The notes under the pieces were generated by a model. It was not told the origin of the DNA and did no database searches. It was given only the letters and a program-made list of their open reading frames with translations. Shown piece after piece: positions 298 through 60,316 of a DNA stretch of 64,000 nt. The stretch lies in the NCBI GenBank assembly GCA_001929475.1, contig LXFE01003012.1, positions 1 through 64,000 of the forward strand, given 5' to 3'. The stretch comes from Neolecta irregularis DAH-3. Its lineage: Eukaryota. Position 1 is the stretch's first letter, and each line of letters starts with the position of its first letter. The position numbers and the translations under genes are program-made.

Positions 298-2448
298 ATG
301 ACCGAAGAGACGGAACACCAAACCTACCTGCACTTGCTCAAACAAGATAATCTCTATAATGAAGACCACAAGGATCTAGCTGGTGGTAATGTAACTCGGG
401 TGAAAAAAGAAGATTCTCCAGTCAGCAGTTGGAAGCCAGAAAGTGTCGCCAATCATGATCAAATTTCTCCTACCGACGAGGAATTGGGAACATTGCCAAG
501 AGTCGCAGACTATATACCTCTAAGAGCATGGCTAATTGTGGGTGTCGAACTCTGCGAGAGGCATGCGATCATGCAAATTCTAGTCTAACCTCCAACAGAT
601 TCACATACTATGGCCTAGTCGGTGTACTTCAGGTACGCAATTCTTTTGTTGAATATTTACCAACGTTCCAAGAATTACGTTCAATACAAGCCGGATTCTA
701 AGATTCCCGGTGGTCTAGGGCGCGGTCAACAAAGCGCTACTGCTCTTGGAAATTTTTTCACTTTCTGGTGCCAAGATCTTTGTGTTTTTGTGGCTTTACT
801 AAATATCAAGGTGCTATGTTACTCCCATTATTGGTGCCGTCATTGCGGACCAGTATCTTGGAAAGTACAAGACGATTTGTCTTTTTTGTGCAGTCTACTT
901 CGTCGGCGAACTCATCTTGCTTGGAACCTCAGTACCCGCATCAATTCGCGACGGGCATGCTTTTGGTGGTTATATTACTGCAATCATCATTATTGGTATT
1001 GGAACCGGCGGTATCAAAAGTAACGTGTCGCCGCTGGTGGCCGAACAAGCTCCGTCTATTGCTCGATTTGTCAGGACTGAAAAATCAGGAAAGAAAGTCA
1101 TCGTTGACCCGGCTCTGACAACTCAACGAATCTTTATGTATTTCTACTTTGGAATTAATGTAAGTCATAACCTTTGGACGGTTTGCTGATCGCCAAGGTC
1201 GGTTCATTATCAGCTCTTGCAACGACCAATCTGCGAAGTAGAGTTGGATATTGGGCAGCATTTATTTTACCCACATGCGTTTTCACATTGGCTATTGCTA
1301 TTCTTCTCTTGGGACGAAAGCTATATATTGTACGACCTCCGGAAGACTCCGTCATCTTAAAAGCATTTCAAGCGCTTTGGGTTGCCGCATGCAATGGATT
1401 CAACATGGATGCTGCGAAACCCTCATACCTCGTTTGATCTGTGCTTCAGTATTCAACTAAAAAGCAGACAGCCAAGAAATCCTACCTAAAGGTCAAGTGG
1501 AACGATCAATTTATCGATGAAATCAAGCGAACATTGGTTGCTTGCCGGATCTTTCTATTTTTCCCAATTTACTGGGTAATACCTTGCAAAATTATTTTCC
1601 ATCTAATCTTTTCAGATTTGCTATAGCCAGATTTCGAATGTTTGGTTTTTCCGGGATTACAGGCTGATGTTTAGAATCTCATCTCGCAAGCTGGCGAAAT
1701 GCGACTAGGAAATACACCCAATGACCTGCTTCAAAACCTGAATCCGATCACTCTTATCGTCTTCATTCCCCTTGTTGAACGATTTCTTTATCCTGGTTTG
1801 CGAAAGATCGGTATTCGATTTCTCCCAATCACGCGAATTAGTTGGGGATTTTTTCTTGCAGCTATTGCAATGGCTTATGCCGCAATTGTCGAGCATAGGA
1901 TCTACAACACGGGCCCCTGCTTTTCGCATATCACAGAGAAGTGTTCATCAAACAACATCGGTGTTTGGGTTCAAGTGACACCGCTCCATTGTGTTCATGA
2001 TTGATGTTTTATAGTCTGGCGCTTATATCTTGATTGGACTCAGTGAGATATTCGCTTCCATAAGTGGTCTTGAATATGCCTTTACCAAAGCGTATAGCTT
2101 GAGATCGTCCATCGACCTCTAATGATCTAGTGGTCCTTCTATGAAGTCTTTCGTCATGAGTCTGTTTTTGCTCACCACAGCTGGTGGAGCAATTTTTTCA
2201 ATTGCTCTTAGTTCGGTTGCCGTGCCTCCGAAAATCATGTGGATGTATTCAACAGTTTCTATCATATGCTTTACCACTGGAATCATCTTTTGGTTCACAT
2301 TCAGACATTTAAATGATAAGGAAGATGAAATGAATGGTAGTTCATCAAATATTTTGAACGAACTGATGCTCTAGCTCTTGAGGCACTAGGTACAAAGCCT
2401 CTCGCAATAGTTGAGAAGGCTCAAAATCAACACGAAAATGCTGTATAG
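298..2448 (+). CDS. PTR2: POT/PTR2-family proton-dependent di/tripeptide transporter, copy 1 (10 introns, the first GC-AG)
   Basis: Spliced translation gives ELCERFTYYG (ExxERF motif), ADQYLGKY, GTGGIKSNVSPLVAEQ and GLEYAFTKA; stop TAG at 2446-2448. Confidence 0.93.
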
Positions 2449-3514
2449 ATGTACTCTTTTTGTAAATGATTAAAGGAATTAATGAATAATTCATATTTTC
2501 AGACGAGAAGTCAAAGATAATTCAACCACACCCTATTCTTATTATGATTAGGACCTGTAACATCCATTTTGAGTCCATTTAATTCAAGGAGGTGGAGCGT
2601 TAGCCCGGTTAGCTTTAGTAGCCCTAGAAAAAAACCGGCGCAAAAAAAGAATTGGTTTAGGCGGCAAAGAACCAGAGATTTCGCGATAATTCAAGCACCT
2701 GAAATAGTTGATCAAAACTGCCATTACGCTTGTAACACATATTTCAGTTGTAGAGCTTTGAGGGATTTTGACAACTTGGAGAAATGAGAAAAACGACTCT
2801 TAGACTGAATGAATGGAGGATTATTCACCAGTCCTAAAGGTAGGATTACTTATAGGTAATAGAAGAACAATCAAACATGAAGGTTCATGTTGATATAATT
2901 TCGATTCCCTTGCCCTCGCAAGCGATGTAACGGCAGGTACTTCCTTCGACTCCGCCCCTGAAAGCGGGAATTCATGAACTTCGAATTAGCGGTGTTAAGC
3001 TTGGTGTTTTGTTCAAAGTCAAGCAATGACTGTTTCATTCAACTTGTGTTTTGTTTCTTATCAGATATGTTGTTTCTTCCTATGTTCACTCTTCGTAGTT
3101 CTATCCTCGCTCAGGTAGTACTAGACAAACCAAATAGATACATGGCTTTTACGATAATTTACACATCTTCGTGCCACATGCTACAACAGGGTTGATAGAT
3201 AGCAGGGGTATCATAGCCATCTTGTCAAAATGGATTAGCATTTGTCGTTATATTCTTCTACGCCGGCAGACAGTGCGAGCCTTGCTCGTTTATCATTTGG
3301 CCTCGTGCTGACTAAATAAAGTCTATTACTACCCTCGCAAAAGCGTGGGTAATTTTGTTCATATAAGAAGCATGTTTCCTTTTCTCCAGGATTAGTGGAT
3401 GTCTAGAAAAGTCTACTTCACTTATCAAATAAATCTTTTTCTGGGCCGATTGTTGCTATTCCTTTTAAAAGGCCTATCGATTTGCTACCATGACCATTGC
3501 TAGAGCCAAGAACA

Positions 3515-5686
3515 ATGTCTGGCAAGATCCAAGATAGTACTCGTCATCACGAAGTGGGACACGAGCGCGAAGTCATTGATCTAACCAAGGATCTGGCTGG
3601 TCATTATCAAGATAATCTCTTCGACCCAACCGACGAAGAATTAAGGACATTGAGGCGTGTATCTGACAAAATCCCCTTCCGAGCATTCTTAGTCATAATT
3701 ATTGAATTATGCGAACGGTGTGAGCTTTCCTGGAATGAAATTTGACTAGCAGCTTTACCTACTACGGGCTGACTGCAGTATTCCAGGTTGACCTGGATTA
3801 TATGGTGTATTCTGAATGAAAAGGATTACGTTCAATACGGCCCTGATTCAGAGATCCCAGGCGGCCTTGATCTGGGGCAGATAGGTGCTACAGCTTTGTC
3901 TAATTACTTTTCTTTCTGGTATATCATTGACCGCTTTCCAAGAACATTTCAAGCCTATGTAGGTGTTATGTATGTTTCCAATTGCAGATCAGACTCAATC
4001 TCAAGGTCACTCCAATCTTCGGTGCTATCATAGCCGACCAATATCTCGGAAAATACAAAACTATCTGCTACTTTGCCATCATCTATTTCATCGGCCAGTT
4101 GATCCTCTTGGGAACCTCAGTACCAGCTTCAATTCGTAAAGGGTATAGTCTTTGGGGCTATATCGTTGCAACTATAACAATTGGTCTTGGGGCAGGGGGT
4201 ATCAAGAGCAATGTCTCGCCATTAGTAGCAGAACAAGCCCCAAGTATCAAGAGATATATCAGGATTGAACCAGATGGCGAAAGAGTCATAGTCGATCCAG
4301 CAATCACAACCCAGCGGATATTTATGTACTTCTACTTAGGAATTAATGTATAGCCCCTTTCAGATCCGTTCCTAACACAAGCATATTAGATCGGTTCTCT
4401 TTCTGCCTTAGCAACGCCAAATCTTCGTGCTCATGTTGGCTACTGGGCTGCATTTCTTCTCCCAACATGTGCTTTCATTCTAGGTAGTATCGCTCTTGTC
4501 ATGGGAAGACGGTTGTATATTGTCAGGCCACCCGAGGGCTCTGTAATCGTGAAGGCATTTCAAGCGCTATGGGTTGCTGCATGGAATGGATTTGACATGG
4601 ACGCTGCAAAGCCATCGAGAGAGGTACACAGGATAAATTTAGGAATATATTAACGACATGGGCTGGTCGAAAAGCTCATTTAAAAGTGAAATGGGATGAC
4701 AAATTTATTGATGAGATCAAGAGAAGTTTAGTAGCTTGCAGAATATTTCTATTCTACCCACTTTATTGGGTAAATTATAGTATATTTCCAGCTCGCTTAC
4801 ATCCTAGACCTGCTATAATCAGGCTTCGAACGTACTTCAACCCCTTTAATATCACAGTGACATTTGAGAATTTGATTTCTCAAGCTGGCGAGATGGAACT
4901 AGGTAATACGCCAAACGATTTACTGATAAATATCGATCCTATCGCACTCGTTATATTCATTCCCATTTTCGATCGATTCTTATATCCATATCTCCGTCGA
5001 ATTGGTATTCGGTTTCTTCCCATAACTCGTATCACATATGGCTTCTTCTCTGCATCTATTGGTATGGCATACACAGCTATACTTGAGCATGTAATATATT
5101 CCACTGGACCGTGCTACATCCATCTCACTGAAAGCTGTCCCCAAAACAACATTGGAGTTTGGACACAGGTACCTATCCCTTATAACGCTTCTCCTAATTC
5201 CTCGTAGTCTGGTATTTATGTGTACCCACAACAATCGAAAAATACTTTCAAACTAACCTTACTAGACTAATTGCAATTTCAGAAATATTCACTTCAATTA
5301 CAGGTCTTGAATATGCTTTTACAAAGGCGTAATTGTGGTCTATTCTCTATTTAGCTGACTTGGAAGTGGACCCTCGATGAAGTCATTTGTTATGAGTCTA
5401 TATCTCTTCACAATGGCTGGTGGATCTTTAATTTCTCTAGCTCTGAGCTATGTTTCAAGTCCTCCTAAGATCTTGTGGATGTATACTGCGATCTCGATCG
5501 TCGCTTTCGCCGGTGGAATTGCCTTTTGGATTTGCTTCCGTCATTTAAATGAGAAAGAAGATGATATGAATGGTATATGACATTTTTTATAGCTCTTCAA
5601 CTAATAAAATATAAGCTCTTGAAGCATCTAGCATCCAACCGATGCACATTACTCATGAGAAATCCACCAGTAATGCAGCTTTATAG
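3515..5686 (+). CDS. PTR2: POT/PTR2-family peptide transporter, tandem copy 2 (12 introns)
   Basis: Same motifs as copy 1 (ELCERFTYYG, GAGGIKSNVSPLVAEQ, GLEYAFTKA) and 10 shared intron positions; one intron needs a GG acceptor. Confidence 0.9.
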
Positions 5687-10548: not shown

Positions 10549-10964
10549 TTAAGCACAAGGTAGCAGAACTATAGCGAGTGGACGGTATGGTGGGTGGTGA
10601 GTGGTTCCCTGATACAGAAACGCCAATCATAAGGCTATTTTTTGGGCCCGTGCAGTAGCAAAACACGCTCCAATGTTCCAGGATTAAGATATGCTGCAAG
10701 GGGTTATTTGGTAATGCGGCATTTTGACTATATGAGATAATCCAACGTGTGTTTCCTTGTAACTGATATCGCTTTACACGTAGAAACTGAGTGACAATCT
10801 CCAGGTACAGAAACCATATAAACCCACAAACCTAGCAGTACCAAGCTGTAGCACTAGCCAATCTGTCGAGTCCAGCTGACAGTATATATATTTGTCCTGT
10901 AGAAGAACGGTCCAAGTTCAACACCACGCTCCCTGTAAAAACATGCTTCCCAACGCTTCTTCGC

Positions 10965-12176
10965 ATGGCTCGCAAGCGAGGACTGGTTACACTGTATATC
11001 CCATAGCTATGGGGATCAGGAACTGATGCCGTGCAGAAGCCTCAGGAGACGCAATTTTCTACCTCAGCCCAACACCGGGCAAGTGTGCTTGCGTTAGGTT
11101 CAATATCGCATTTGCAACATCACTTTGCTCGATCGGGCATCAAATTGACAGGAACCTTGGGGCAGTACAAGAAACAGACGTATCAGGACTCGTCCTACGG
11201 AAGTTTATGCAGCTCGCCAGAGCCTGAAGAAGAGATTCCCAGGCCTCCGACTCCCAAACAACCTACATACATCCAAGGCGCTGCGAAATCCATTGATCCC
11301 GAGAGACTCAGAGCCCGGTTAGATACAGATCTGGAGAAATGCCGCCTAGAATGGTCTACAGGTGATCTTGTCGAAGAAAAAGCAATCGACCTGGTTACCT
11401 TTGCAACTTTTGCAATTCGATCTGCCAGAGCGTATAGTACTCAGAGCATACCAAACATCATGCCTGACGAAGAGAAGGCGATGCGTACAAAGACTGTTGA
11501 TTGTCTTGGAGTACTACGCAGGATTGCGGAAAGAGACGGAAAAGGCGGTGTTACGGCAGACGAATGTAACTTGTTGCTCGCATGGGTTCACCAATTACAA
11601 GTCTATCTCAGAAAAACAGATGAAGAGACTGAAGAAAGGCTACAAACTAGCTTGACTTGGATCCAAGGAGATTGGACAGATCGAGAATTAGGTTACTTCT
11701 CATTGTGCTTCAATCTGCTTATATATACAGATCGGTACCATCTTTTCTTGCTGTACTTTGATCCATCTCCAACGCCAATACCCTCGCCATCAGATATACC
11801 CGCTTTCCTCGATGCTTTACGCCCTGGACTCCGCTTATGCCTGATCCACAATGCCTGTACTCGAAGATCGCGACGTCCTTTCGGCTATATATCACGTCAT
11901 CATCTTGACACAAAAATCCGTTATCGAGCAACAGAAAACCTCTCCTACTGGAGAAAAGCCATTGAAGAGCGCTGGGATGTCGAAGCTGATAAATTCTCGG
12001 TGCGAGAAATCATTGAGGAAACCAAAATCGGCGACGCGATGCTTCTTGACACTGTTAAACGATGGTGTCAAATTGTTATAAATGAAATATCCGGCGATCT
12101 TAATGTCAGGAGATTGGCTCCTGTTACCAATGGAGAAAAGGCATTTGCCGCCAAAGACGAAGGAGCTGCAGCCTAA
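10965..12176 (+). CDS. Conserved fungal hypothetical protein with a possible calponin-homology-like C-terminal region
   Basis: Long ORF with RASVLALGSISHLQHHFARSG and LRPGLRLCLIHN...YRATENL; short first exon MARKRGL joined by a GT-AG intron. Confidence 0.65.
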
Positions 12177-14365: not shown

Positions 14366-15045
14366 ATGACTGTCACCTCCATTTTTCAGGTTTCTAAAGA
14401 GACTCTTTCCCAAGAAAAAGTACCACGTCTTCTCTATGCTACCACCGTCTTTACTGACTGGGCCAGATCGAGCAGATTGCCAACACTTGTGGTCAGACAC
14501 GAGGACTCAAATATCTCGCTGTTGCAGATATACACGAGAAGCAGGAGACTACAGCATTGATAGGGTCATGGGAGAGTATGGATGTAATTCGACGGTTGGG
14601 ATTGGCGTGACTGATTGTGTAGGACTATTTGGCATGGAAACCACATCCAAGCTGTGTGAATGAAGAAAGCGTTGTTGCATCATTCGATACGGAGAAGCTT
14701 AAGCAATGGCCAGTTACGGACATTGCATTCCTTCCAATGAAAAGCCTTTCCGAATTCGATGCCCAACGAGAAGAGATTGAAGCAGGCTTGGAAATGTCAT
14801 CTGGACATCTCGGACACGAATGCATTATTCAAGATGCCAGCCAAAACACTGTACTTATGTTGGTTGGATGGGAAACCGTCGAGGTACTTCTTAAGCCGTA
14901 TCATTTTGCTGATCTGGAACAGGCGCATGAGACCTTCGTAGTAAGTCCGGACAGTGAAAGATATTTTCAAAGTCTTGAGAAGCTTCTTGCAGTCAGCAAC
15001 CCAAAGATGTATCATTTAAAGAACTTTAAAGTTCTTTCTCCATGA
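14366..15045 (+). CDS. Dimeric alpha+beta barrel (ABM-like) protein, two repeats, 3 introns
   Basis: Two W-E-[ST]-x-[DE] motifs (GSWESMDDYLAW and VGWETVEAH) after in-frame GT-AG splicing. Confidence 0.65.
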
Positions 15046-30357: not shown

Positions 30358-30397
30358 ACAATCCGTAGTGATACATCTCGAAAAGAAGATCCAATTA

Positions 30398-44945: not shown

Positions 44946-46345
44946 CTATTGTATTTCAGCACTGGATGTCTTTGATCCTCCTGTGTTGAGATAGCTAGCC
45001 GCTTCAACATTGATCGCTCCCGTACGATCGTATAAACTTCTCGCCCGAATATACGGATCGAAGCGGAAATAATCCTCACGAAACTGCTTCATCAACTCGT
45101 ACCTCTGCTCTTTCAATTTATCTTGATCATCATTCTCATCTGCTGCAATCCAGGATTGAGTAGTTCTTTCAAGTTTTGTAATTCTTTCGTCGCGCTCGGC
45201 GAGAATTGCGTCCCGCTGTTGGGTTTCTTTCATCAAGTTGTTTTCACCTGCGACCGGATCGACATAGGTATATACAAATTGATTGTTTCCACCGAACTCT
45301 TGAATTAACTGATCAGCGGAAATGAATTTTTCGAGATCAGCTGTGGTCCGAGTAAAATGTAGTTTGGAAGCAAATTCAGGATCCAGCAAGCCTTTGATGA
45401 TGTTCCAGATGCCTTCTCATGAGCTCTGGATCATATGGAAAATAGTACCCTGGAACCACCATGGTGCATTGTGGATCAGACAAATGCCCAAACATTCTGG
45501 ATAATAAGTCTCTAAACATTTTATCATAAACTTAGCAACAGGAAGGTCTAGATTAGCAAGCTACAAATTAGAAGTTGATGGAATTGAAGATATACCGAGA
45601 AACCGGTTATATCAACCACCATGCAACCCTGATCGACGTAGTCGTTCAGAAAAAATATGGCAGTTTCCATGTAGAAAGAAGTAAATTTTTGCATGGTTTC
45701 GAGCGATTGATGTGCAGGGAAATGTAAACGTGGTTTAATGTATGACAACGGTCGACCTTCCTTATCCGATCCGTACATGAATGCTTTCCCTGATTGCAGT
45801 TGTTTAATAAATTCTTCGTCATTGTTGAGAAAGAAATACTCTTCTCCCTCGGCTGCGAGGCGATCGACCTTGGGATAACACATTTCGCTTGTCCTCCAAT
45901 GAATAGTCGATAACAACATGACAAAAGCGCGGTGTACGTCCCACTTACGAGCCCGGAGAAAGCGTAGGAGCCAGGTGTCTGGATTCTCGAGTTTGACAAA
46001 ATTCCAAAATGCAGCACTAGAAGATCAATTTGGATGATTAATATAGATCAGGTACCGCAGGTCTTTGGGATCTTTGTTGGCTAGGTCATCCCGCATGTCC
46101 TTTGTCAAAGAATATTTATCCTGGGCAGGGTCAACGACAACAGCAGACTTTTTATTCAAAAGAGCAGCGAGTTTGAGTTTGTGCTTTCTTAGGTCCTTTT
46201 TGTCTGTAAAAATATTGTTGTGCTCGCCGTTTATGGGTTCGACTGTAGAGAACAGTATAAATACAGCAGCCCACATGTCCTTTAGACATTGCTCCTGACT
46301 GGAAGAAAGAGATCTGGGACGACCAAGCAGTAACGGAGTAGACAT
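44946..46345 (-). CDS. CRAL-TRIO / Sec14-family lipid-binding protein (Csr1-like)
   Basis: PDTWLLRFLRARKWDV, GSDKEGRP, DITGFSLANLD, ETYYPECLG…HNAPWWFQGIW…LDP. Confidence 0.9.
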
Positions 46346-46757
46346 TGTTGAAGGAGGGATGAATCCATGAAAACCCGGAAACAGGTATAGTACCTAATCT
46401 GGCCCCGACAACATTGGTCGGGTATAAATGAGTAAAATCCGTCTGAAACAGAGTCTGTTTTGACATTCCAGGCGCTAACTGTAAGTTTTGATACTCCGAA
46501 GTAAAAAGACCAGGTTTATAGTACTAGCCTAAGTGTTGTATCTTAGGCAAGGTATTCTAATTACATCAAGTTTATATCCGGCCATAAAGGCCGCAATATA
46601 ATTCCACGCCTCTTGCCGTATCAGTAAGATGTACCTGCAGGGTACATTTCTTACACTAACTCTCAATTTCCAGTGGTTAAAAATGTTCTTGTTCGCTCAT
46701 CCGGACGATGAGGGTTTAAGAATGATAGAAATCTAGTCGTTTTTTCGCTTTATTACC

Positions 46758-47856
46758 ATGCCTCTGTCAGCCCCCGATACCTCCCAGAATGTTCTCAGTC
46801 TCTTCAGTCTGAAGGAAAAAGTGGTTATCGTGACTGGTTCTTCTCGCGGAATCGGTCTACATGCTGCCAAGGGAATTGCCGAGGCTGGTGGTGATGTCCG
46901 TTTTATAATCGCATTGTGTTTTATGGTTTCAGGTTGCACTCATCTATTCTTCTGCCCAAGATACGGATCATGAGGCGGCCAATATATCAAACATATTTGG
47001 TGTAAAGTGTCACGCATACAAATGCGACGTGACAAATCTCGAAATTTTAAGCTCACAGCTCTCGAATCGTGGCTGATATTGTAGGTCAGCACCGTATTCA
47101 CCCAGATCAGAAAGGACTTTGGCAAAGTTGATGTTGTAATTGCCAACTCTGGTATGTTTCTCTGAAAATAATTGTTGCTCAACAAGTCAGGCGTATGCAT
47201 GCATGTCTCTGCATTGGTATATTGGAACACTGTCGGTCATTGATTTGTAAAAGGACACAACTGTAGCACAGTGGATGCGAATACAGAATGTAAACTACAA
47301 CGGCGCATTTTACACAGCGCAGGCAGCAGGCAAGTATGCAATACTGTTCCAGTTATCTCCTCACTATCCAGAATTTTCAAGGAACAGGGTTTTGGGAATC
47401 TCATTTTTACAGCAAGTATTTCCGGATCCATCGTCAATATTCCACAGCCCCAAGCTGCCGTACACTATCATGCTTTTCCAAGCTTATACAAAGTACAATG
47501 CCTCCAAGGCTGGTGTAATTCAACTCGCAAAGAGCTTGGCAATGGAATGGATCGATTTTGCCAGGGTTAATATTATTTCACCTGGATATATCGCAACCGT
47601 AGGCACATTCGTAATGGCAAATTGTTCAATTATTAGGATATGGTCAGCTCAGTCAAGAAGGAATGGCGCGATAAGTGGCACGAAGTCATTCCAGCTGAAC
47701 GTATGGCCGACCCAGCAGAGTTGAAAGGAGTATGTCTTGAAAACGCAAAAGAAATTATATTAATAACTCCAGTCTTTTGTTTTCTTGGCCAGCGATGCCA
47801 GCTCATACATAACTGGTCATAACCTGGTAGTTGATGGTGGCTACGTTTGCATTTAA
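46758..47856 (+). CDS. Short-chain dehydrogenase/reductase, sorbose/L-xylulose reductase (Sou1-like), 8 introns
   Basis: VTGSSRGIG, IFTASISGSIVNIPQPQAAYNASKA, SPGYIATD, DASSYITG. Confidence 0.9.
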
Positions 47857-49427
47857 AGAGAAAAGCTGTTTAGTGAGATTCAACTCCTTCAAAAAGAGAT
47901 GGCTTCTTCGAATCTGCAAGTCCCTTGATGAATTACGAAGAGTTGCGACTTGCAACCTCTGGCAACGATTATCTACTTGCAGCCTCTATTTTATTATCAT
48001 TATTGGCCACAAGAGTTATCTTTCCCTTAAGAATGACGATCAGTCATCTGAAGAATCAACTGGCAAGTCTGGTGTTCATTGACACTACTCACGTGGAATC
48101 ACTATCCACCAAATATACTTTGTGTTTGGAGTATCAACCGCCCTTCACTCCTCCTTCTTATCGCCATTTCCATTATTTGCTTTCAATCGATAAACCATGG
48201 CTCTGTGAGCTGTATCTGCAATCCGCATGTTTTTGTTGGAAAGCCTCTTACTTTTATTCGATTTCTCAAAGACAAGATAGAATTATCCGTCATTCAAGCG
48301 AATGGATAAAAGACGTACATTTGTTCATCTGATCCAAATCAATGAGATATATGGGCTAAATAGGTCGCTTCTCGCGATATTCTTGACGAGGTTCTCCTCC
48401 CCCTGGAATTGTCAACTACAAGGACTTTATGAAGAAACAGTCGCCTAATTCTTTGAAATAGCCAGCACAATTTATTGATTTCCTTCAAAGGTATATTGTT
48501 TGATATCTCAGTCTTTGTCATCATGGCGATTCGATTCTATTTCGCACGACTTTATCCAAAAGTGATTTAGCTGTTCGTGTGAGAGTCGAGAGAACAGGGT
48601 TTCTACAATCTAACCCAATTTCTGCCTGGGAAATGAATCTAGGTTAACGGAAGAGCGTGTCGCGGCATTGTAGTTTGCCGCCTTGAAAGGCTAATAGGAC
48701 GCCATCTATTGTAGGCAGTTTTCTTGATAACTCTTGCTCAGCCCTGAGATCAAAATCAAAAACTGTGTTTGAAGCAGCTGCAAGGAAAACATGGTATCGT
48801 GAATACATTGCATCCAAACGCAAACATGTATAATCAAAAGTATGGTCTTTTGACTGTGCAGTGAAAAGCAATTTGGAGCCGCTTTTCCGAGAGATTTGCA
48901 ACCACCCGACTAGAAAACTGTTCTTTTATCATCGGATTGGCTTACAAGTTTCATTCTTGCAACCATTAAGTGTCCTGACAAAGGAAAGAACACACTAAAT
49001 CTGGAAAGCAAGGTATTTTGCTCTCTGTGAAGCAGCGCTCTACTACTGGCTAGGACACTTTGTTGTTTCAAAATTCGGTATCAGTGGTTTCTAGTGTTGC
49101 TTGTAGATGGAAGCCTGTAAAAGTGACAAGGCTGGTTCCTTTGAACCAACGAGCTCAATGAACAGACTAAGAACTAGGACAACAGTGTGCTGCTTGTAGC
49201 CTGATTTTTCAGTACCAGTAGGAGCAAGGCCATGTCAATCATCAATCCCAAACAAAAACAGCAGCATCCAATAAGATTCTTTTGACCAAAACAGGCTAAA
49301 TTTTGCAAAGCAGCCTGAAGATAACCTAACCTACACCTCTTTAAATGTGATCAGGCTGATAGTTTTAAATAGGCTCCAAAGCAAATGCATTCCATGTTCT
49401 CTTGAAGATCCACCACCATTTTGCACC

Positions 49428-51376
49428 ATGCATAGTCTGCTGCCAGCTGTCTCTTACAATGCCGGTGCAGACCGGGACTACTACCATCAAACATACTCCG
49501 ATCAATATGCAGGTCAAGTACCAAATGCACCACCAGGCATTTATGGAACAGAACACCGACCAGCAGTAGACAAACCCTCGCAGAACACAATATCGCGGAT
49601 CCAGCAGCCAGTACGCGCATTCCAATCGCATTCTCGAGCTGATAATGTCATTTTAGGCTCCCATGATGCATTCGCAGCAGCTTCCGTCGTGTACTATACA
49701 ACGACCCTGCAGATTGCGAATTCTACCGCAACATCCAAACTCTGTAACATTACCCGACCGTCCTCCAATAGAACCAAGGTCAGGATGCTTGGCTGACAAA
49801 AACCCATTCTCATCAGAACCTGCTACGGCCTCTGAACTTGCGATTCCACCATCAAACCGTCTCGTTGAAGTCGCCCGACCATCGTATCCTTCGCCCATCT
49901 CGGATACGGCATCGTCGAGTTCGGTGGGAAAATCATCGCTTGTTGTTTCGCCGCCTTTCTCGACGGATTGGCAATATCTCACGCGCATGATCCGTGTCCC
50001 GGTATGGTCAACAATGGAACTATTTGCACTTTACGAGGGTCTACTGAGTCAGATCCTGGTATACCCGCCAGTCTTTAACCATCTTTTATTGGATTTCATC
50101 AGTCGTGTAGTGCGACAATTGGCTCAAAACGATTGGCACCAACAGGCCTGTCCATTGCTCGTCAAAGCTGTTGACCGGACATGGAACAGCCCGGCCCAAT
50201 CAGCGGTCGTTCATCGTCTATACCGGCAGTTTCATCCCTTTGCGGTCGATCCGTCATCTCAAATTCCAGAAAGGGGTCAAAGGGCGACACGATTCCGACG
50301 ATCGTCTGAAAGTCGATCTCCAAATCTCCAAATGAGATGGCAGCCATACGCTCGTCCAGCACCACAACAAGCTTCTACTCACTCTCCACAGGCTCAACTC
50401 CATCAACACTTTGCCAAATCGACCGTGCAACCTCCTGCTTCGCCTGCCACTTTACCACAGTGTATCTTTATGCAAAATTCCATATCAGCTCCCAATTTCC
50501 CTACCTGTGTGGTGGATCCTCCAGTCGAGCTGGGTAAGCGGAAATGTGTAGACTGCCCCACCAAATATCGGAAAGTAGAGCCTTTGTATATTCGCTCCCT
50601 CGGCTTTGCATTGAACCCGACTGCTCTTTCTCTCGCCCAGCCCAGTGTGTACCACTTTGACTTTCAAAATCGTCATGTTCGAGGGAAAAAGTACCATTGA
50701 CTTGCTGTTTGCACCTAATTATGTAGAGTCCAATATGGCCTCTTACTAGCGGCTAAAACCCCTGAGGGAACCACTCTACCCGGAAGATCCGAACTAACCT
50801 TTGCGCGAATAAATGGTCGTCCAGTGCCAGACTGTTTATCTTGTGGTATTATGCCATATGTTAAAGAAGGGACGAATAAGCTCGATCTCGCTATACTTGA
50901 TAAAATAAACAGTTACGAGATCGCAGTTAAAGTGTACGTTGTTGAATCATCTTTAGAAATCCAAAAATACGCCAGTGATAACAGGGTTTCAACTCACAAT
51001 TCTCTCGCGTATATATTCAAATCGTCGACTTGCAAAGGGACTGCACCAGCCGAGATTGATGTTTCCTTACTTGACCCCTCTACCCAATCACGGATACAAC
51101 TTCCAGTTCGGTCATTACAATGTTCACATCCAGAGGTATACTTAGAATGCCATATCTCAATCTATACTAACTATAATTTAGTGCTTTGACTTCACGTCAT
51201 TCATGTCACAGAAAAATCAGGACTGCCCCTTATGTAAACGGCGCATTTCATTCTCGGAATTGGCCGTTGATGAGCTACTTCAAAAGTTACTCCAAAGTAT
51301 ACCTCTTCAAACCAGCAAAATCACTTTACAATCCAATGGAAATGTTCATTTCATTAATTCTGAACCACCGATCTGA
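49428..51376 (+). CDS. SP-RING (MIZ) zinc-finger protein, possible SUMO E3 ligase or coregulator
   Basis: C-terminal VSLLDPSTQSRIQLPVRSLQCSHPECFD…CPLC; low-complexity P/Q/S-rich N-terminus; 3 GT-AG introns. Confidence 0.75.
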
Positions 51377-51660
51377 CTGATGATTTCTATTTATCCTTTT
51401 TTTATTTCCTGTTATTTTAAGTGGGAATGTATCATTCAAACTGCCACTGATTTCTGGGCACATATTTTCTTGGAGAGATTTTTCTTCATTGTTAAACATT
51501 GGCTCTTACATGTGGATGGATGGATTGCATCAACTCTGAGTTTATTGCATGGTGGGAATGTGTATTCTAAACCAGGTTTCCTGGGTCGCTGTAAATAACA
51601 AAAGAAATAGCCTGAAGGATAGACACTCTAAAGTCGTCCCAAACAGAGGATTTTGATGAA

Positions 51661-54266
51661 TCAAGACGATACAACTGCATCCATGCTCTTCAAAGCCCGT
51701 ACTGCAGCTTTCTGCGCACGTTCCATCATCTCTTCTAAATCTTCAAATAAAGAATCTTCTCGCCCGCTGAAATCATGTAACAAAGAACCGGCAAATGAAT
51801 CACCTGCACCCGTTACCGAGACAATCGAGTCTTGCGAAATCTGTTCAACTGCAGGGAAGTAATCGATGACAAGGTCCGATGTCTTGCCGTGCGCAAGAAT
51901 CTTTGACGTCGTCATTGAGACTATGTTTCTTTCTGATGGTATTATGCGAAATGCCAGGACTCCTAGGGAGCCCAGCTTGAGAAAGATCGCTGGCATGAAC
52001 AAAAGAAGATGTGTAGCTTGTTGAATGAGGCCCTGCGGTCCCAAATGAGCTATCTCCTTATGCCTCGAGAGAAATAGTTCGACATCTAGCGGATTTATAA
52101 AATTCTTTCAAAGAACAGGTACCATTCCGAAAGTCTTGAAGCAAGTGTAAGCTATTTAGTGCTTCCCACCAATCATTTCGCTCAAAAAGTCCGGTGTCAG
52201 ACGCAGATAGAAACATTGCTGATAGTTCAAATGCATTTGGCGAAACTGCGTGTATTGAGTGGTTTGGATATACTCCCAAATTTCGGATTTGTAAGGGACG
52301 AATCGATTTTGGAACAGAAGTCGGTTCAAAGAAAACTATATCGGTATGAAGTTTAGCCAGATTAGCACACACATACCTTTTGAGTTGATCTCTTTAGCTA
52401 CTGAAACAATTTCAGTCATAGTTTTGCTTCCCAAATTTCCATCCATTGCAATCCATCGAGGTTGTTTGGGCACGATGAAATCTCGGACTTGCTCTGCCAT
52501 GTCCTCCACAATAGCCATATCTGCAACAGCAACGACCAAATCGCCCTTTCCGTCGTGTACAGCGACGTACTTCGCAGTCTCATGTTTCTCGCTGATTAAA
52601 TAACTAGTCTTTCCAAACCCTTTTCGGAGGATTTCGGATTCGAGCCATTGGCCGTCTCTATCCTTGCCACGTGCGGTGAGTAGTTCAACCGACATTGAAC
52701 CTGAATTAAATGCTGATCGAGCAAGATTGAGACCTACTCCTCCAACTGTACGAGTTATGCTTCCTGTATGGGAGGTGTGTAGTGAAAGTGGTGAGGATGA
52801 AGCAGTGCAAGTATAATCAATTGCTACGCTGCCGATTATGGCTAAAGGAATCGGAGTAGAGGAAATGTGTTTTTTAGAAGATGAAGGACAAATCGGAGAT
52901 AAGATACTCCTAATAGGTCAATTCAACCAAGTCAACAGGATGTATCTACGACTGGACAGGCGATTGGTGATTGATCAGTCCTCTAGAGTGAACCGTTCCG
53001 AGGTTCGCTTTACTCAACATAGCAAGTTCCATTGCGATCTGACTTCCAACTTTTGCATTGTGATAAACCAATTCGATGTTAGCTTTTAAACTCAATCCTT
53101 TAGTAGCCTCCGCGATTTCTTTTAATAGGAACGGAGTACAGTCCTTTCCCTTGATATCAAGTTTCTTGGCCTTGGCAAGTGCATTATCAATTATATTATT
53201 AATAAACGACGAAGGGATTGCATGTTCATGGGGTATAGGAACGCAAATTAACGTGCCAGATTTTAATCCGAGAATGTTATTGGTATCTAGGCTGTTATCA
53301 AGCTGAATTTAGAGGAAATATACAAACTAAATTGGCGACATCAGTGATTGTAGGGCTATTGAACGGTGACTACTCTGGTTAAATGAAGACTTGGAGGAAT
53401 TTCATTACAAGTACACCGGATTCTCTGGCGTAGAATGCCGGAATTTGAACACCAGTCTCGCCCATCGTTGTGACAGTGACGCCATTCGTCTCTAGAACCT
53501 TGGAGGTGAGATTTACCAATAGAATGTGTGAAATACTTCCATCGTCCTCTGAATATCCAGAATACTCTTGGAACCAGCACAAACAACAGCTAAAGGGGTT
53601 CTTCCCAGCCTGAATAATCAGCTCATGAAGCTTCTCCGCCAACAAACTCGATCAAGTCGGCAGATATATCCATCGTATGTTCCCCTTCGCGATGAACACC
53701 GCCAATCCCCCCAGTCACAAAGACTTTGATCCCAGCAGCATGGGCAAGGACCATTGTTCCAGAGACGGTCGTTCCACCTGTTAATTTCTATTCTGTGAGC
53801 GTCGAGGGACTATGTAATAACGGTACGCGAGCAATTACAACCGCAAGATCTCTCCTCGAGGTTTTATGTGATTTAGTTCCAGTCTGTGCAAGGATTTCCA
53901 ACTGTGAATCATTCAAACCTACGTCGATTATTATTCATGCTTGCGGTAATTGACCGTACCGACATGGCAATTCCCATTAACTATCGCTACGGTTGCTGGG
54001 ACCGCTCCATTCTCTCTAATGATTTGCTCGACAGTCTTAGCCATCTCTAGGTTTGCAGGGTAAGGCATTCCATGTGTAATTATTGTGGATTCAAGCTGTT
54101 TTGTTTAAATAAACCGATATAAAATTGGTACAGCAACGACTGGATTTGCATTCTCTTTTGCTTGCAGCACCTCTTTTGAGTATAATATCTGGTCTGGTCG
54201 CATAGAATAAAACCTCCTGGCAAGCCATTTCATGGATCTCAGTGTATTAAACCCTGTGATAGTCAT
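51661..54266 (-). CDS. Bifunctional pseudouridine-5'-phosphate glycosidase (PsuG/IndA) fused to a PfkB pseudouridine kinase
   Basis: [56 protein letters not shown]; Pfk[10 protein letters not shown] and SVTGAGDS; about 10 introns. Confidence 0.92.
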
Positions 54267-54337
54267 AGACGTCAAAAGTTGTGGAGCAAAAAGTAGTTAA
54301 TCGGGTGAATTTCTTCCTAATCACACCCACAAATATA

Positions 54338-55669
54338 ATGCAGCACCATCACGCTTATATATATAAACTCAAGACTCGACAGATCTCTGGATCCTATGAT
54401 GTTTCATTGCAGACTGCGCATATTCTGCGACAAATAGTATCAAGTGTAAAGTCAAACAACATCGACGTGCTAGTTAGTCATATACGTGAAATCGGTCGTC
54501 TATTAATTCAGACTCAGCCCAGAGGTATTCGCATCTGTGGGATATGCATTAATAGAAAGAACTTGCGAGTGGCAATATTGTTCGTCGTGTGTTGCATTTG
54601 ATACGCGAAGAAAACGAAGACAAGGACGGGAATACAACACCAGAGGGATCAATTTCGTATAGTCTGCCTGGTACTCCAAACAAAAGTAAGCTTTTCTGTG
54701 AAACATTGTATTTGACTTATTGAATCCGTGCATGATTCGTTCAACACATCTTCACTTTCATCCACGCTTTTTGCTCCAGCTCCTCCAAAAGAACGCAGGG
54801 AATCCTTAGATGAGCCTGGAAATACTTCCACTAGTCTTAAATCCACCATTATTGAAGGGATCAATGAGATTATCGATGAACTGCGCGATACACACTTGAA
54901 TATATCAAAAGAAGCTATGGAACATATTCATTCGAGGTATCTTGTTTTACTCTGGTGATAAACATGACTCGTTAGCGAGATTGTCATGACATACGGCGCC
55001 TCGAAAACTGTTCAGTCATTTCTCTGTGCGGCAGCTAGAAAACGGAAATTTACAGTTTTGACTGCCGAGTGCTATCCGAATAGTAGCCGGTCGAGTTATG
55101 ACATGGCCAAGGAACTGGCTTCTTGTGGCATTGAAGCAGTAGTGATACCGGATTCCAGTGTATTTGCACTTATGTCTCGCGTAAACAAGGTTATTCTGGG
55201 GACTCACGCTGGTATATCATATGATCTAGCCTGATAGAAACTTACTTCGAGTTCTTGCTAATGGTGGGTTATTAGCTGCTTCAGGAGCGAGATTGTTGGC
55301 TGCTGCTGCTAAACACCATTCAACACCGGTGGTAGTATGTGCAGGAATCTACAAACTGTCACCTTTGTACCCGCATGATTTAGAAGGATTAATAGAACTC
55401 GGACGGCCAGACAAAGTCATAAGCTTTAATGAAGGTATAATCACTTCATGCTCGATTGTTAGCAATCAGGTCCTTTGATCAATAACGTGGATGTTTTGAA
55501 CCCGCTTTTCGAATACATTGCACCGGAATTGGTTGATCTGTATATCACAAATGTGTATGTGCGCTGTAAAATAATGAACTAACGCCATAGGGGATGTCAT
55601 TCACCAAGCTATCTTTACCGGCTTATAAATGATCACTACGACTCTAGAGACATCTCGCTGGATGAATAA
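54338..55669 (+). CDS. GCD7: Translation initiation factor eIF2B beta subunit
   Basis: [66 protein letters not shown]. Confidence 0.93.
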
Positions 55670-55721
55670 ATCAAGACTAGATAACATGCATATATGTACA
55701 AAAACATAGTCATTTCTACTT

Positions 55722-56093
55722 TTACTTCAAGATTACGTTTGCTCCTCTTAATTCCAAAAACATCTGTGCGTTACTGACACCCATCTTGCGCACAACCCCA
55801 AAAATCTCCTTATTGTGATACCGTAGTTTTGTATATGGATCCACATAGCTGGCTGGCAAACCAGTGATATCGCACCATTTCTTTGGTGGGAATAACGAGG
55901 GTGGAGCCTCAATATTGGTGTAAGTGGGAAAATCAGGAGGGAAGTCAGTTCGAGATGTCGAAGAAAGGATCTGCTTGAGTGTCTTGATTCGTTTTTGAGT
56001 TGGCCGCTTGTAGTTTGGGTTCTTGAACGGACGATGACGGATTGTAAGATCTATGCTGTCGTATGGAGGAACAGAACCGTTTGGCGGAGACAT
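55722..56093 (-). CDS. IES6: INO80 complex subunit Ies6 (YL1 C-terminal domain), intronless
   Basis: PFKNPNY, TYTNIEAPPSL, KKWCDITGLPASYVDP…LRY, LELRGA. Confidence 0.93.
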   Translation of the reverse strand: MSPPNGSVPPYDSIDLTIRHRPFKNPNYKRPTQKRIKTLKQILSSTSRTDFPPDFPTYTNIEAPPSLFPPKKWCDITGLPASYVDPYTKLRYHNKEIFGVVRKMGVSNAQMFLELRGANVILK

Positions 56094-56284
56094 TTACAGA
56101 GTTTTGGTGTTTCTAAAAACATCTCAAGACTCGACATTTATACTTGAGGATGCAGAATATTACAGCATACATCTAAGTCTGGAGGTTAGTACTCATGACT
56201 ACAGTGCATATATCTAGCCAATAGACAAGATTTAAAGATGTCTGTGTTGGCTACTAATAAACTCCTCAACATCTCCACCATCAA

Positions 56285-57816
56285 ATGATTCTCCAACAGA
56301 TTTTGGCATCTGCCCTGTTGCTTCTCGCATCCGTGGATTCAAAAAAGACCTCACCTTTCAAACATACAAATGCACTGAGAACAATTGATCTAACAAAGTC
56401 ATATATTCGCGAAACCCATGCACTTGTAGTAGAGAATATCGCCACTAGTCCTCAATCAGAGTACCTCTGGCCTGTAGACACACGACTGGAAGAAAATATG
56501 AGCTCAATCGAAGTAAAAGAAAAGGGCGCAGACAACCGAAATTATAAAATTGAAAAAATTGAGGGGTATATCTCCGTTGTCAATTCAGACTAATGTACGA
56601 GGTCTGACGGGCGATTTTTCAGGATATCATTATTGAAACCTCTTGGCGTTGGAGAAAAGATTACATTGCATATTTCCACCGTTTATATCGACGCTTTGGT
56701 ACCTGTCCCGGCACAAATTCCACAAACTGCGAAACAGTATCTCCGGTGGACTGGATCGAAATACATACCGTCTGCCTATTCAACTGAGAAGCAAAAGACC
56801 AAATTCAAGTATTCAAATCGAGGCTATATAATTGACATATCTAGACTTCCCTCCAATGATGTACCATTCTATACCAAACCATCCTCCGATTCTCAAGGCC
56901 CAGCACTTTCTGACACTACTCTCACATACGGACCATACGACTCGATTTCACCGGACTTGCAACAAGAAATTTCAGTTCGCTATGAATTCACACTGCCAGT
57001 TACCAAAATCTTCTCTCTGGATCGCCAAATCTATGTCTCGCACTGGCGAAATACAGCTAAAGTCACAGAACAGTACTCGTTAATAAATGCTGGAGCCAAA
57101 TTGAAGGGATTTTTCAGCCGTTACGAACAAATGCAAATGCAGCAGGCCCAGTCGCCGGTAGCTGCTCTGCAAGTTTTGCCCATTGGTTTAACAGGCGGTG
57201 CTCGAGACGCATGGTTTACTGATGAAATTGGAAATGTATCGACGAGTCAGTTCAAAAGTATGGGCAAGAAAGCACTTTTGGCTGTTCGTCCTAGATATCC
57301 TTTATTTGGAGGATGGAAGTATGCTTTTGGAATCGGATGGACTGTAGATTTGAACAATGTGGTTAGCCTTGTGGATGGAAACAGAATGACTTTAAAAATT
57401 CCGTTTATCGAAGGGCCGATTAATGTGGCATATGATTTAGTCAAGGTCAACATCAGACTTCCTGAGGGATGCACGTATGTCGATTAATTCTAAAGCAGGC
57501 TTGATAATTGTGTAGGAATGTTCAAGTTGAGTCTGATGTTCCTCTGGTCGCACAAGTTATTGAGCCTTACATGTCATTTTTGGATACCGTTGGATCGACT
57601 TTGGTCACACTGAAAGCAGAGAAGATAACAGACGAGATGCAGGATCGAGATATCACCGTAAGTCTATTCTGATTTATATCATCTAAGAAGATTCAGCTCT
57701 CGTATGAATTTCCACCCTGGGCAGGGTTTCGTAAGATTATAGTTGGTGGAAGCGTTTTCTTGAGTGCCATCATTGGACTATTTCTCCTCCGGATGATTCC
57801 CACAAAGATCGGATAG
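56285..57816 (+). CDS. OST1: Oligosaccharyltransferase alpha subunit (ribophorin I)
   Basis: Signal peptide, RTIDL, YGPY, VSHW, DEIGNVSTS, PRYPLFGGWKY and C-terminal TM helix. Confidence 0.92.
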
Positions 57817-57897
57817 TAGCTATAAGAACTAAGAGTATTGCTAGAATTATTTACATGTTCAAGTCTACCTTACAGGGCCCTTTCATCTTTTTCTTTC

Positions 57898-58350
57898 TCA
57901 GCTTATACCGTGTCTTGATTTTAATTTATCCAGTTCTGCTTGCCTAGCAGCCAGATCCTGGGGCTTTCCAGATTTTTCCGGCTGGTGAAATAATACAACG
58001 AGATATCTGTCCATAAAGTTGAACCTGACAGTCAGGATATATTTGTAGAAGCATACCCGTTGAGCTTCTCACAGGCCATTTTTGCGTCCATTACATCCTC
58101 AAAGACTACAAACGCCGTTCCTTTTGTAGTACTTGCATTTCCTCTATCAAATTAGACGATTGCATCAAGGTGTAGACGAACAATCGTATCTGGCGGATAG
58201 GTCCATATTTGCCAAATAAATCAAACATTTCCTCGGTTGTGACATTATACGAAAGATTCTTGATGAATAGTATTCGATTCACTTCCTTTGATGTTGCTTG
58301 CTATTATATTAGATTTCTGGGCAAGTAAAAGGACGTTCTCTGCCTGCCAT
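57898..58350 (-). CDS. SF3B14: U2 snRNP branch-site protein p14 (SF3B14/SF3B6), 3 introns; not reported in the ORF track
   Basis: [36 protein letters not shown]…[12 protein letters not shown]…[16 protein letters not shown]. Confidence 0.93.
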
Positions 58351-58548
58351 TCTTCCAGATGTGAAATGGATTGGAGAAGGGACGAATGGCAAATTCAATG
58401 GAGAGAATCAAATGATCCACCAACAAATGCAGACTATACATGGATAAATGTATTTCATAATATCTATATTCGTAAAGTAGAGCTTATATGTCTATAGAGT
58501 CTGATTAATTTTCAGAGACGTCATCAGGCTGTTTCTTGTTTATAATCA

Positions 58549-58574
58549 TTTCAGTTTTCAGTTTTCAGTTTTCA
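58549..58574 (+). repeat. 7-bp tandem repeat (TTTTCAG)n immediately before the hexokinase ATG
   Basis: tttcag ttttcag ttttcag ttttca directly visible. Confidence 0.8.
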
Positions 58575-58576
58575 TT

Positions 58577-60316
58577 ATGCATCGAAAACCGCCCTCTAGG
58601 TATCATCTTATTATAACTGTACTAAAGGACCCAGAAAAGGATCCATGAACAATGTCCCTCGCGATTTGATGGACCAAATATCTGCCTTGGAGGCCCTTTT
58701 TACAATTGATAAGGACAAATTGAATTTCATATGCGATATGTTTGTAAAGGCTCTTGATAAAGGTAACTGTACAAAACGAAGATGCTGACCAAAGGACTAT
58801 CTGTGGAAGGCGGCGATATAGTATGAGTCTACCTTTTAATAGCTTTTAACCAATGTCAAGCCGATGATTCCAACTTGGGTTTTTGGGTTTCCAAAAGGCG
58901 ACGAGAATGGTTCTTATATCACCCTTGATATGGGCAAGTTCCTTGTTGGAGCTCTATCTTACAATTAGGAGGAACCAATCTTCGTGTCTGTGAAGTTGAA
59001 CTTTTGGGTAATAGACGCTATGATATCGTGCAATCTCAATACCGCATTGAAGAGGAATGTAAATCCGGAACTAGTGAGCAACTTTTTGACTTCGTCTCGG
59101 ATTGTCTCAAGAAATTCCTGGATGATAATTACGAGCAAGGCCTGCGTGGGAAGAAGTTACCATTGGGATTTACGTTCAGTTATCCTTGTCAGTATGAGTG
59201 GTTTCATAAGTTGGTTGATCCCTAGTCAAAAAAGGATTGATCATGGTGTTTTGCAGAGATGGACCAAGGGTTTTGATGTAAAAGGAGTTGAAGGAGTTGA
59301 TGTTGTTCCAATGTTGGAGGCTGCATTGGAAAGGAAAGTATGCTTTTATTTCTCGTATATCACTTATCAGCAGGGTGTCCCGATAAAGGTCACCGCTCTG
59401 ATCAACGACACAACTGGGACTCTTATCGCGACTAATTATATCGATCCAATGACCAAGATTGCTGTCATCTTTGGAACCGGGTGTAATGGTATTTTCCTCA
59501 ATCTCCAATTTCGCAAATGCTTCAGCTGCGTATATGGAGAAAGCAGGATGTATCCCAAAACTTTTGTGCCTGAACCTTCCTCAAGATACCCCAATGGCCA
59601 TTAACTGTGAATGGGGTGCTTTTGATAACGAACATCGAGCACTGCCAAGGACTAATTATGATGCCATAATTGATAAAGAATCCCCTCGACCTGGCCAACA
59701 ATCCTTTGAGAAAATGATTGCAGGTCATTATCTCGGTGAAATTCTTCGCCTCGTTATCATTGATCTCGCTGAACAAAAGCTGATTTTTGAAGATCAGAAT
59801 ATCTCCAAGATTGGAAAACCCTACAGCATAGGAACTGCTGTGCTAAGTGAAATCGAACTGCACGTCGTTGGTCGTTTTTGCACAGCTGATATAATAGGGA
59901 TCCTTTTGAAAACCTGATGCAAGTTCATACCATATTCGAAACAAGGTACGGGATAGTGTGTACCGAACCAGAACGAAAACTTATTCGACGAGTCACAGAG
60001 TTGATTGGAATTAGAAGTGCTCGTTTGAGCGCTACCGGTATCGCTGCAATCTGTCGTAAGAAGGGAATCAAGGAATGCCATGTTGCCAGTGACGGCAGTG
60101 TTTTCAATAAATATCCATATTTTAAAGAACGTGGAGTTGAAGCATTACGAGATTTATTTGGCAAGGAAGGCGATAAGATTACTTTGATGGGAGCTGAAGA
60201 CGGACCAGTATCTTGAATCCGTGACATGTTACTGACTTTACTAGGGTGTTGGAGCAGCGCTGATTGCTGCTTTGACTATTAACCGCAAAAAAGCAGGTAT
60301 TCTTGAGGAATTTTAG
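58577..60316 (+). CDS. HXK2: Hexokinase (9 introns, two GC-AG)
   Basis: RKPPSRKGSM, PMIPTWV, LDMGGTNLRV, LGFTFSYP, WTKGF, INDTTGT, IFGTGCNAAY, NCEWGAFD. Confidence 0.93.

Follow-up and report, generated by a model that had tools for sequence, protein, structure and literature searches.

Ultra-short introns with a few non-canonical ends in a 64-kb stretch of the Neolecta irregularis genome

The stretch analyzed here, called the window in the following, comprises 64,000 nucleotides (nt) of nuclear DNA of the ascomycete Neolecta irregularis DAH-3 (assembly GCA_001929475.1, contig LXFE01003012.1, positions 1 to 64,000, forward strand). Its genes carry very short introns, and a few of these end in dinucleotides other than GT or GC at the donor and AG at the acceptor. 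The window has a G+C content of 41–45 % and holds genes of fungal type on both strands, as revealed by Pfam scans of stop-free open reading frame pieces. These are two tandem PTR2 peptide transporters (PTR2a and PTR2b), a Mer3-like helicase, NUP159, two tandem GH81 glucanases (GH81a and GH81b), a Kelch/DUF4110 protein, MT-A70, calcipressin, NPL-FKBP, REV1, a cullin, a Sec14-like protein, an SDR, a MIZ-finger protein, a PsuG-PfkB fusion, ribophorin I (OST1), a hexokinase and an RPE65-type oxygenase. An eIF2B-beta-like gene was named by us from its translated sequence. Among the encoded proteins of this organism, NCBI and UniRef name cullin-3, OST1, a pseudouridine-metabolizing bifunctional protein, Kelch repeat protein 3, endo-1,3(4)-beta-glucanase 2 and the peptide transporter ptr2. 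Neither tRNA genes nor Rfam matches were found in the window, and no splicing-factor gene was recognised there in the Pfam scans.

In the window 139 introns were curated, with uncertain ones excluded, compared to roughly 145–150 that had been reconstructed in an original prediction made from the letters alone. Their lengths range from 32 to 52 nt with a median of 38 nt; 103 fall within 35–40 nt, and 135 lie within 33–50 nt, in agreement with the range given for most introns in that prediction. By their ends, 131 introns are GT-AG, 4 are GC-AG and 4 have other pairs, i.e. 135 of the 139 carry the GT/GC...AG ends of U2-type introns. The GC-AG class had been predicted with five members, of which four were found. 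Four introns with odd ends were likewise obtained where four to six had been proposed, and they are of the kinds named, with GG- and TT- (or AT-) donors and -GG and -TG acceptors. In comparison, the fungal average in Table 1 of PMC7072748 amounts to 98.7 % GT-AG, 1.0 % GC-AG and 0.257 % for all pairs outside the GT-AG, GC-AG and AT-AC classes. At the last of these rates, at least four odd-ended introns among 139 would be met with P = 5e-4. The observation of ultra-short introns with few odd ends is confirmed.

For positions 44001–64000 a DNA run (X1) and a set of RNA contigs (X2) were compared with the window. X2 carries spliced RNA, since 56 joints were found in it on this part and none of them in X1. 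The joints skip 32–48 nt, and the 15 of the 56 that are listed with positions, all of them missing from X1, comprise 13 GT-AG and 2 GC-AG introns. Additionally, the mean depth of a bin corresponds to the contig depth multiplied by the share of its bases that the contig covers, and bin depth is thus a measure of the intron bases per bin. The intron table predicts this depth within 0.1 in 12 of 12 bins of known contig depth, and two further bins fit once the depth of the PsuG-PfkB contig is fitted from one bin. Annotated NCBI proteins were mapped exactly onto the DNA for the cullin (11 introns), PsuG-PfkB (10), Kelch (6), GH81b (4) and OST1 (3) genes, and comparison with homologs or paralogs was used for PTR2a and PTR2b, GH81a, SDR, calcipressin and eIF2B-beta. 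A custom gene finder called 171–173 introns compared to the 139 retained, a number of its calls being misplaced or false by homology or RNA. When odd ends were penalised only lightly, it returned dozens of false odd introns, and it is unusable for counting them. In total, the evidence consists of RNA joints for 16 introns, RNA depth or piece ends for 30, annotation for 21, homology or paralogs for 35 and the model only for 37; the first two groups form an RNA-supported subset of 46 introns. The RNA bears out the ultra-short length, the GC-AG ends of two introns and the use of AAG and GAG acceptors. Removal from the mRNA is seen directly for the introns with listed joints, and among the odd ones it is seen for eIF2B-beta only, via the length of the gap.

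In the donors of the 139 introns 73 different hexamers occur, with A at position +3 in 106 introns and G at position +5 in 60; past +3 the information content is 0.1–0.3 bit per position. The high degeneracy after GT that had been predicted is found in the number of hexamers. GTG, GTT and GTC donors are a minority, some of which may be drawing errors; those of introns 768–810 and 1432–1467 are among the non-GTA donors fixed by paralog comparison. The acceptors ending in AG are TAG (71), CAG (37), AAG (25) and GAG (4). As predicted, AAG and GAG are frequent, with 29 of all 139 introns, 7 of the 46 in the RNA-supported subset, and two AAG and one GAG among the 16 introns supported by joints. A branch-like NTRAY motif with its A 7–9 nt before the 3′ end occurs in 57 of the 131 GT-AG introns and in all four odd introns, compared to 931 of 25,460 exon windows of 38 nt (3.7 %). 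Judged by this motif, the introns would possess the branch point of U2-type introns.

The odd intron of the eIF2B-beta-like gene (54686–54722, plus strand, 37 nt, GTAAGC...TTG, i.e. GT..TG) is supported in its length by RNA contig depth. It contains a TTGAC motif with the A 7 nt before the 3′ end. The RNA contig has a depth of 111.6, and 92.2 was observed for the bin 54673–55339. Together with two other introns in this bin (39 and 40 nt), a skip of 37 nt predicts 92.2, in comparison to 92.7 for 34 nt, 91.7 for 40 nt and 98.4 for retention. The sole canonical choice, a 94-nt GT-AG intron at 54686–54779, was rejected with a predicted depth of 82.7. Among all frame-keeping skips of 37 nt at this site none ends in AG, and three start with GT, at 54686, 54698 and 54708. 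Because a 37-nt skip fits and none of these ends in AG, the 3′ end is not AG whichever of them is used. One non-AG 3′ end is thus supported by RNA contig depth.

In the SDR gene, which is similar to mannitol dehydrogenases, homology points to an odd intron of 38 nt at 47047–47084 (plus strand, TTAAGC...TAG, i.e. TT..AG) with a CTGAT motif 8 nt before the 3′ end. The preceding exon 46933–47046 is stop-free past the start of the canonical 83-nt alternative and aligns end to end with residues 41–78 of 1h5q_A (E 8.9e-5). This alternative, a GT-AG intron at 47002–47084 (plus strand) that a canonical-only model chooses, shortens the protein by 15 residues and removes the segment aligned to 1h5q residues 64–78. 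The exons abut without gap in four of the four chains common to both searches (7dll, 7dld, 7dlm and 3ctm), each with a weak E value of 0.19–0.95. The reading frame needs an intron length of 2 modulo 3 ending with the AG at 47083–47084, and therefore either the TT..AG intron of 38 nt or an AT..AG intron at 47044–47084 (41 nt, one residue fewer). The region has an RNA contig depth of about 83–85; skips of 38, 32 and 83 nt fit its depth bins alike, retention would be disfavoured only if the contig spans the entire bin, and these bins were not counted as evidence.

The GH81a gene, one of the endo-1,3-beta-glucanase paralogs, shows by homology an odd intron of 40 nt at 21630–21591 on the minus strand (GGATCA...TAG, i.e. 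GG..AG) with a CTAAT motif 9 nt before the 3′ end. Its position is that of the GT-AG intron 25495–25458 in GH81b, and its removal restores a motif that GH81b shares with all 12 outside homologs. With the 88-nt GT-AG alternative at 21678–21591, 16 residues of this conserved motif are lost, and a 52-nt GC-AG alternative replaces the residues behind it. Identity to the 12 outside homologs is 40–47 % for GH81a and 41–47 % for GH81b.

In PTR2b, likewise by homology, the odd intron comprises 38 nt at 4624–4661 (plus strand, GTACAC...TGG, i.e. GT..GG), with a TTAAC motif 8 nt before the 3′ end. Position and phase match those of the PTR2a intron 1432–1467, and the following exon 4662–4769 matches positions 188–215 of Pfam PTR2, similar to the PTR2a exon. 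The NCBI model of this gene (P0017; gene 3515–5686) has a GT-AG intron of 111 nt (4624–4734) instead and leaves the frame behind it, so that around 4624–4870 about 50 conserved residues are replaced by out-of-frame sequence. Compared with PTR2a, the model with the odd intron gives 380 identities in 566 positions with 21 gap columns, and the NCBI model 355 in 554 with 44 gap columns.

All four odd introns are 37–40 nt long. After their removal complete stop-free frames result for PTR2b, SDR and eIF2B-beta and for the C-terminal 616 residues of GH81a, which bears out the prediction that the affected genes are otherwise intact. No frameshift or in-frame stop was found in the window genes checked by homology, and four of these genes carry a change of a splice dinucleotide. 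The complete frames and the conservation of GH81a, which equals that of GH81b, are not those of pseudogenes, with a very recent single lesion being possible. From the homology we infer that the odd introns of SDR, GH81a and PTR2b are spliced as drawn.

We propose that these are ordinary U2-type spliceosomal introns of N. irregularis, reduced in length to about 38 nt. With a confined length and about 8 nt between the branch A and the 3′ end, spacing would largely set both cleavage sites, and the terminal dinucleotides would then carry less of the recognition load. As a consequence donors could vary after GTA. The site of the second step would be taken largely by distance, with the result that AAG and GAG would be common and occasional BG ends would work. 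A few percent of the introns would keep working with a change at acceptor position −2 (TGG, TTG) and perhaps at donor positions +1/+2 (TT, GG). In yeast, Slu7 and Prp18 are dispensable at short distances between branch point and 3′ site. The original prediction had already suggested a definition of introns mainly by length and branch-point spacing, which is partly supported by the confined lengths, the placing of NTRAY and the one non-AG 3′ end backed by RNA depth. That spacing causes the tolerance is what we infer from these features. Overall, we lean slightly towards recognition dominated by spacing with relaxed ends as the general reading. A more specific form is put forward tentatively, as possible rather than probable: about 3 % of Neolecta introns would be spliced at ends that studied spliceosomes reject (U at +1, G at +2, non-A at −2), placed by a fixed length and a distance of about 8 nt from branch to 3′ end. 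A relaxed fidelity at donor +1/+2 is plausible but unproven.

Several observations weigh against spacing-dominated recognition with relaxed ends. The introns with TT and GG donors and with the GG acceptor have no RNA joint among the 15 of 56 listed for 44001–64000, a part that includes SDR but neither GH81a nor PTR2b. In the spliceosomes studied, catalysis should be prevented by a U at position +1 of the intron. For eIF2B-beta, the depth gives the length of the gap and not its ends, and 54708–54744 (GT..AA) fits equally well. Of the 139 introns, 37 come from a model several of whose errors surfaced only via homology or RNA. Donor position +3 is A in 42 of the 46 RNA-supported introns. The full table thus overstates how variable the donors are, some of the variation stemming from unverified models. 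Finally, frame-keeping GC-AG introns of 32 nt, each adding two residues, are available in SDR (47058–47089, plus strand) and, four codons upstream of the odd intron, in PTR2b (4611–4642, plus strand).

The odd ends in SDR, GH81a and PTR2b might be recent splice-site mutations that disable or impair the genes, with transcripts being retained, mis-spliced or degraded, and eIF2B-beta would then remain as a real, isolated case. GH81a and PTR2b each lie in tandem with an intact duplicate, so that their loss would be tolerable, and genomes usually contain many SDR genes. The spliceosomes studied can hardly do without G at +1 and A at −2. A search whose query contained the GH81a exon (gene 21051–24006) also gave no GH81a among the annotated proteins of the organism that it retrieved. 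However, random decay would be expected to favour frameshifts and stops, and there are four splice-dinucleotide changes with none of these. RNA contigs extend over the SDR region, GH81a is as conserved against outside homologs as its partner, and the essential gene eIF2B-beta shows a similar defect and yet is spliced. We therefore regard inactivating mutations as rather unlikely. The odd ends could instead be artefacts of drawing, the cell using nearby canonical pairs such as the 32-nt GC-AG introns and making slightly different proteins. The frame is preserved by these alternatives, the models were made by hand or heuristically, and problems in the MIZ, cullin and hexokinase genes were resolved to canonical introns on checking. 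On the other side, no canonical alternative of the observed length exists for eIF2B-beta, and with those for GH81a a motif present in all 13 relatives is lost or replaced. The donors of the GC alternatives are poor, and these introns would shift a position shared between paralogs and add two residues where five solved relatives are gapless. In SDR the donor would be GCTCTC, compared to GCA in all four accepted GC donors, with a branch-like motif farther from the 3′ end; in PTR2b it would be GCCATC with no NTRAY near the 3′ end and at a position absent from PTR2a. Drawing artefacts thus appear improbable to us.

Errors of sequencing or assembly, as a further explanation of the odd dinucleotides, are hardly credible. 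The DNA contigs (depth about 410–480) show no other letter and no indel compared to the window over 44001–64000, including the SDR and eIF2B-beta sites, so that as far as X1 goes the TT donor is not an error of assembly; X1 is perhaps the source of the assembly, so that this agreement is not independent. The RNA contigs also show no differences. Nothing was found in support of such errors, and four of them, all on splice dinucleotides and none shifting a frame, would be very unlikely.

Relaxed 3′ ends have a counterpart in yeast. According to Roy et al. 2023 (PMC10711555), spliceosomes of S. cerevisiae lacking Prp18 use non-YAG “BG” and GAG 3′ sites near the branch point, and UGG and UUG are among the sites validated without Prp18. 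Similarly, the Neolecta acceptors TGG (ending at 4661) and TTG (ending at 54722) keep the last G, have a non-A at −2 and lie 8 and 7 nt past a branch-like A, with RNA support for 54722 only, and GAG is used as well. In contrast to the yeast sites, which are minor, alternative and found in a mutant, those in Neolecta would be the main sites of essential and conserved genes in a wild organism. For Oikopleura dioica and Eurytemora affinis, about 10 % minor non-canonical U2-type introns in annotations are given in PMC7072748. Compact genome, short introns and a raised share of ends other than GT/GC-AG are shared with Neolecta, whereas in the account given there GA-AG dominates with conserved flanks, compared to four different single substitutions, no GA-AG and about 3 % (4 of 139) in Neolecta. 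Measured against ordinary fungal introns as summarised in that source, the dominance of GT-AG (131 of 139), the GC-AG minority and the CTRAY-like branch motif are similar. The lengths confined to 32–52 nt, the spacing of about 8 nt between branch A and 3′ end, the higher shares of GC-AG (4 of 139) and other pairs (4 of 139) and the 21 % AAG/GAG acceptors differ. With U12-type introns (AT-AC or GT-AG) the odd introns share the occurrence of ends beyond GT-AG. They lack, however, a [AG]TATCC donor, and in length and branch spacing they match the U2-type majority. The U12-type combination of a [AG]TATCCTT donor with a TCCTTAAC branch near the 3′ end was not found in them, the donors being TTAAGC, GGATCA, GTACAC and GTAAGC. 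One GT-AG intron of the 139 starts with GTATCC, followed by GAG.

According to literature, DNA and RNA of the fruiting body were sequenced for the Neolecta genome paper (PMC5309816); a term search for the word stems “intron” and “splice” gave no match in its main text, and its supplements may treat introns. In 1211 Neolecta orthologs 4202 introns are reported in PMC7940399, so that the high intron density is already known. Additional RNA-seq data of this species are reported in a paper of 2026 (PMC13263728; GEO GSE300630). Among the matches listed, judged by title and start of the abstract, no paper has the splice sites of Neolecta as its topic; supplements may hold intron statistics.

If spacing-dominated recognition with relaxed ends holds true, the normal spliceosome of N. 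irregularis, a free-living fungus, would take 3′ (and perhaps 5′) ends seen in yeast only without proofreading factors, and this fungus would be a natural test case for the substitution of splice-site sequence by intron length and branch spacing. If the share of about 3 % also holds, the fungus would be an example from nature, in the wild type, of splice sites chosen by a ruler. In the Neolecta genome, gene prediction restricted to canonical ends mis-builds genes; examples are PTR2b described above, the OST1 model described below and GH81a, which did not appear among the annotated proteins retrieved.

The joint class of the table consists of the 15 listed joints and one further intron. In OST1 (plus strand), RNA joints define the introns 56566–56601 with a GAG acceptor, 56809–56844 (in frame, 36 nt, joined from 56808 to 56845), 57475–57515 and 57658–57696. 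The NCBI model of this gene (P0002; 56285–57796) has three introns, misses the RNA-supported 56809–56844 and ends one intron at 57690 instead of 57696. In a neighbouring gene on the minus strand the joints at 58181–58144 and 58056–58025 are shown as CT..AC. The hexokinase gene (plus strand) contributes 58450–58497, 58600–58634, 58763–58794, 58821–58860, 58934–58968, 59192–59225, 59338–59373, 59489–59525 and 59860–59897. Of these, 58763–58794 (32 nt; joint skipping 32, cut +4) and 58821–58860 (40 nt) have AAG acceptors. The GT-AG intron 58450–58497 (48 nt), placed by an RNA joint, lies upstream of the hexokinase start codon and is thus located in the 5′ untranslated region. The sixteenth intron of the joint class, 60208–60244, was derived from a contig piece starting at 60245 and from contig depth.

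Two of the four GC-AG introns belong to hexokinase. The first (58934–58968, 35 nt) has a GCAAGT donor; its RNA joint from 58932 to 58968 skips 35 nt and slides by at most two places, and this is the sole placement with canonical ends. The second (59860–59897, 38 nt, donor GCACGT) is joined in RNA from 59859 to 59898. In PTR2a, the 38-nt intron 561–598 (plus strand, donor GCATGC) restores the junction between ELCER and FTYYG, and the GT-AG intron 3718–3752 of PTR2b occupies the same place. The fourth is a candidate in MT-A70 (32669–32705, plus strand, 37 nt), which comes from the gene-finder model only and lies in an unconserved region. For eIF2B-beta, the length of a 40-nt intron with GAG acceptor at 55212–55251 (plus strand) fits the depth bin; it restores the junction between VILGTHA and VLANGG, which we take to be an eIF2B-beta motif. 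In the MIZ-finger gene a 46-nt GT-AG intron at 49611–49656 (plus strand) has RNA support from a contig piece beginning at 49657, upstream of which its record has another 62 letters. Because of this intron the junction no longer needs an odd or 88-nt intron, and the corresponding candidate 49691–49778 was rejected.

Other junctions of the gene finder proved misdrawn by homology, NCBI proteins or RNA, namely 59174–59210 and 58763–58809 in hexokinase, 41674–41711 in the cullin, 55190–55229 in eIF2B-beta and 583–618 in PTR2a. By the same evidence the in-frame introns 62817–62782 and 22693–22655 and the introns 50645–50683, 34468–34509 and 60297–60610 are false; 62817–62782 would predict a bin depth of 111.5 compared to 118.2 observed. 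Left out of the 139 were all model introns in two unidentified genes (10943–12176 and 14366–15045), the minus-strand models downstream of 15942, the N-terminal introns 23843–23785 and 23520–23485 of GH81a, 46334–46299 in the Sec14-like gene, the MIZ introns upstream of 49611 and 40436–40494 in REV1. An unplaced intron of about 40 nt within 61343–61840 (minus strand), in the gene downstream of RPE65, is implied by contig depth and was also left out.

Very small exons occur between some of these introns. In PTR2b, a micro-exon of 7 nt (3963–3969, plus strand) between the introns 3919–3962 and 3970–4005 keeps FW-CY-VTP as in PTR2a. A second one of 7 nt (61185–61191, minus strand) is located between 61235–61192 and 61184–61146; its depth bin fits, and an RNA joint from 61146 to 61236 has 6 letters between. 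Further tiny internal exons are found at 54512–54524 (13 nt), 5208–5221 (14 nt), 1616–1639 (24 nt) and 4808–4831 (24 nt). The PTR2b introns 3970–4005 and 5222–5265 are absent from the tandem paralog PTR2a, the other ten positions being common to both, and an intron gain or loss after the recent duplication follows from this difference.

On the minus strand at 51326–54266, a pseudouridine-5′-phosphate glycosidase (PsuG) is fused with a PfkB kinase; all of its 10 introns are consistent with RNA contig depth. Single RNA contigs span neighbours on opposite strands, i.e. OST1 and the minus-strand gene (57700–58200) as well as hexokinase to the RPE65 gene (60245–62586). Neighbouring transcripts therefore overlap or abut in this compact genome, the contigs not showing whether they are one molecule. 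Between the Sec14-like and SDR genes, the DNA depth rises at 46524–46583 to about 6187, compared to 410–480 in the flanks, with many small variant contigs, and loose contig ends occur at 46506–46628 in the DNA and RNA sets alike. This element is probably a high-copy repeat.

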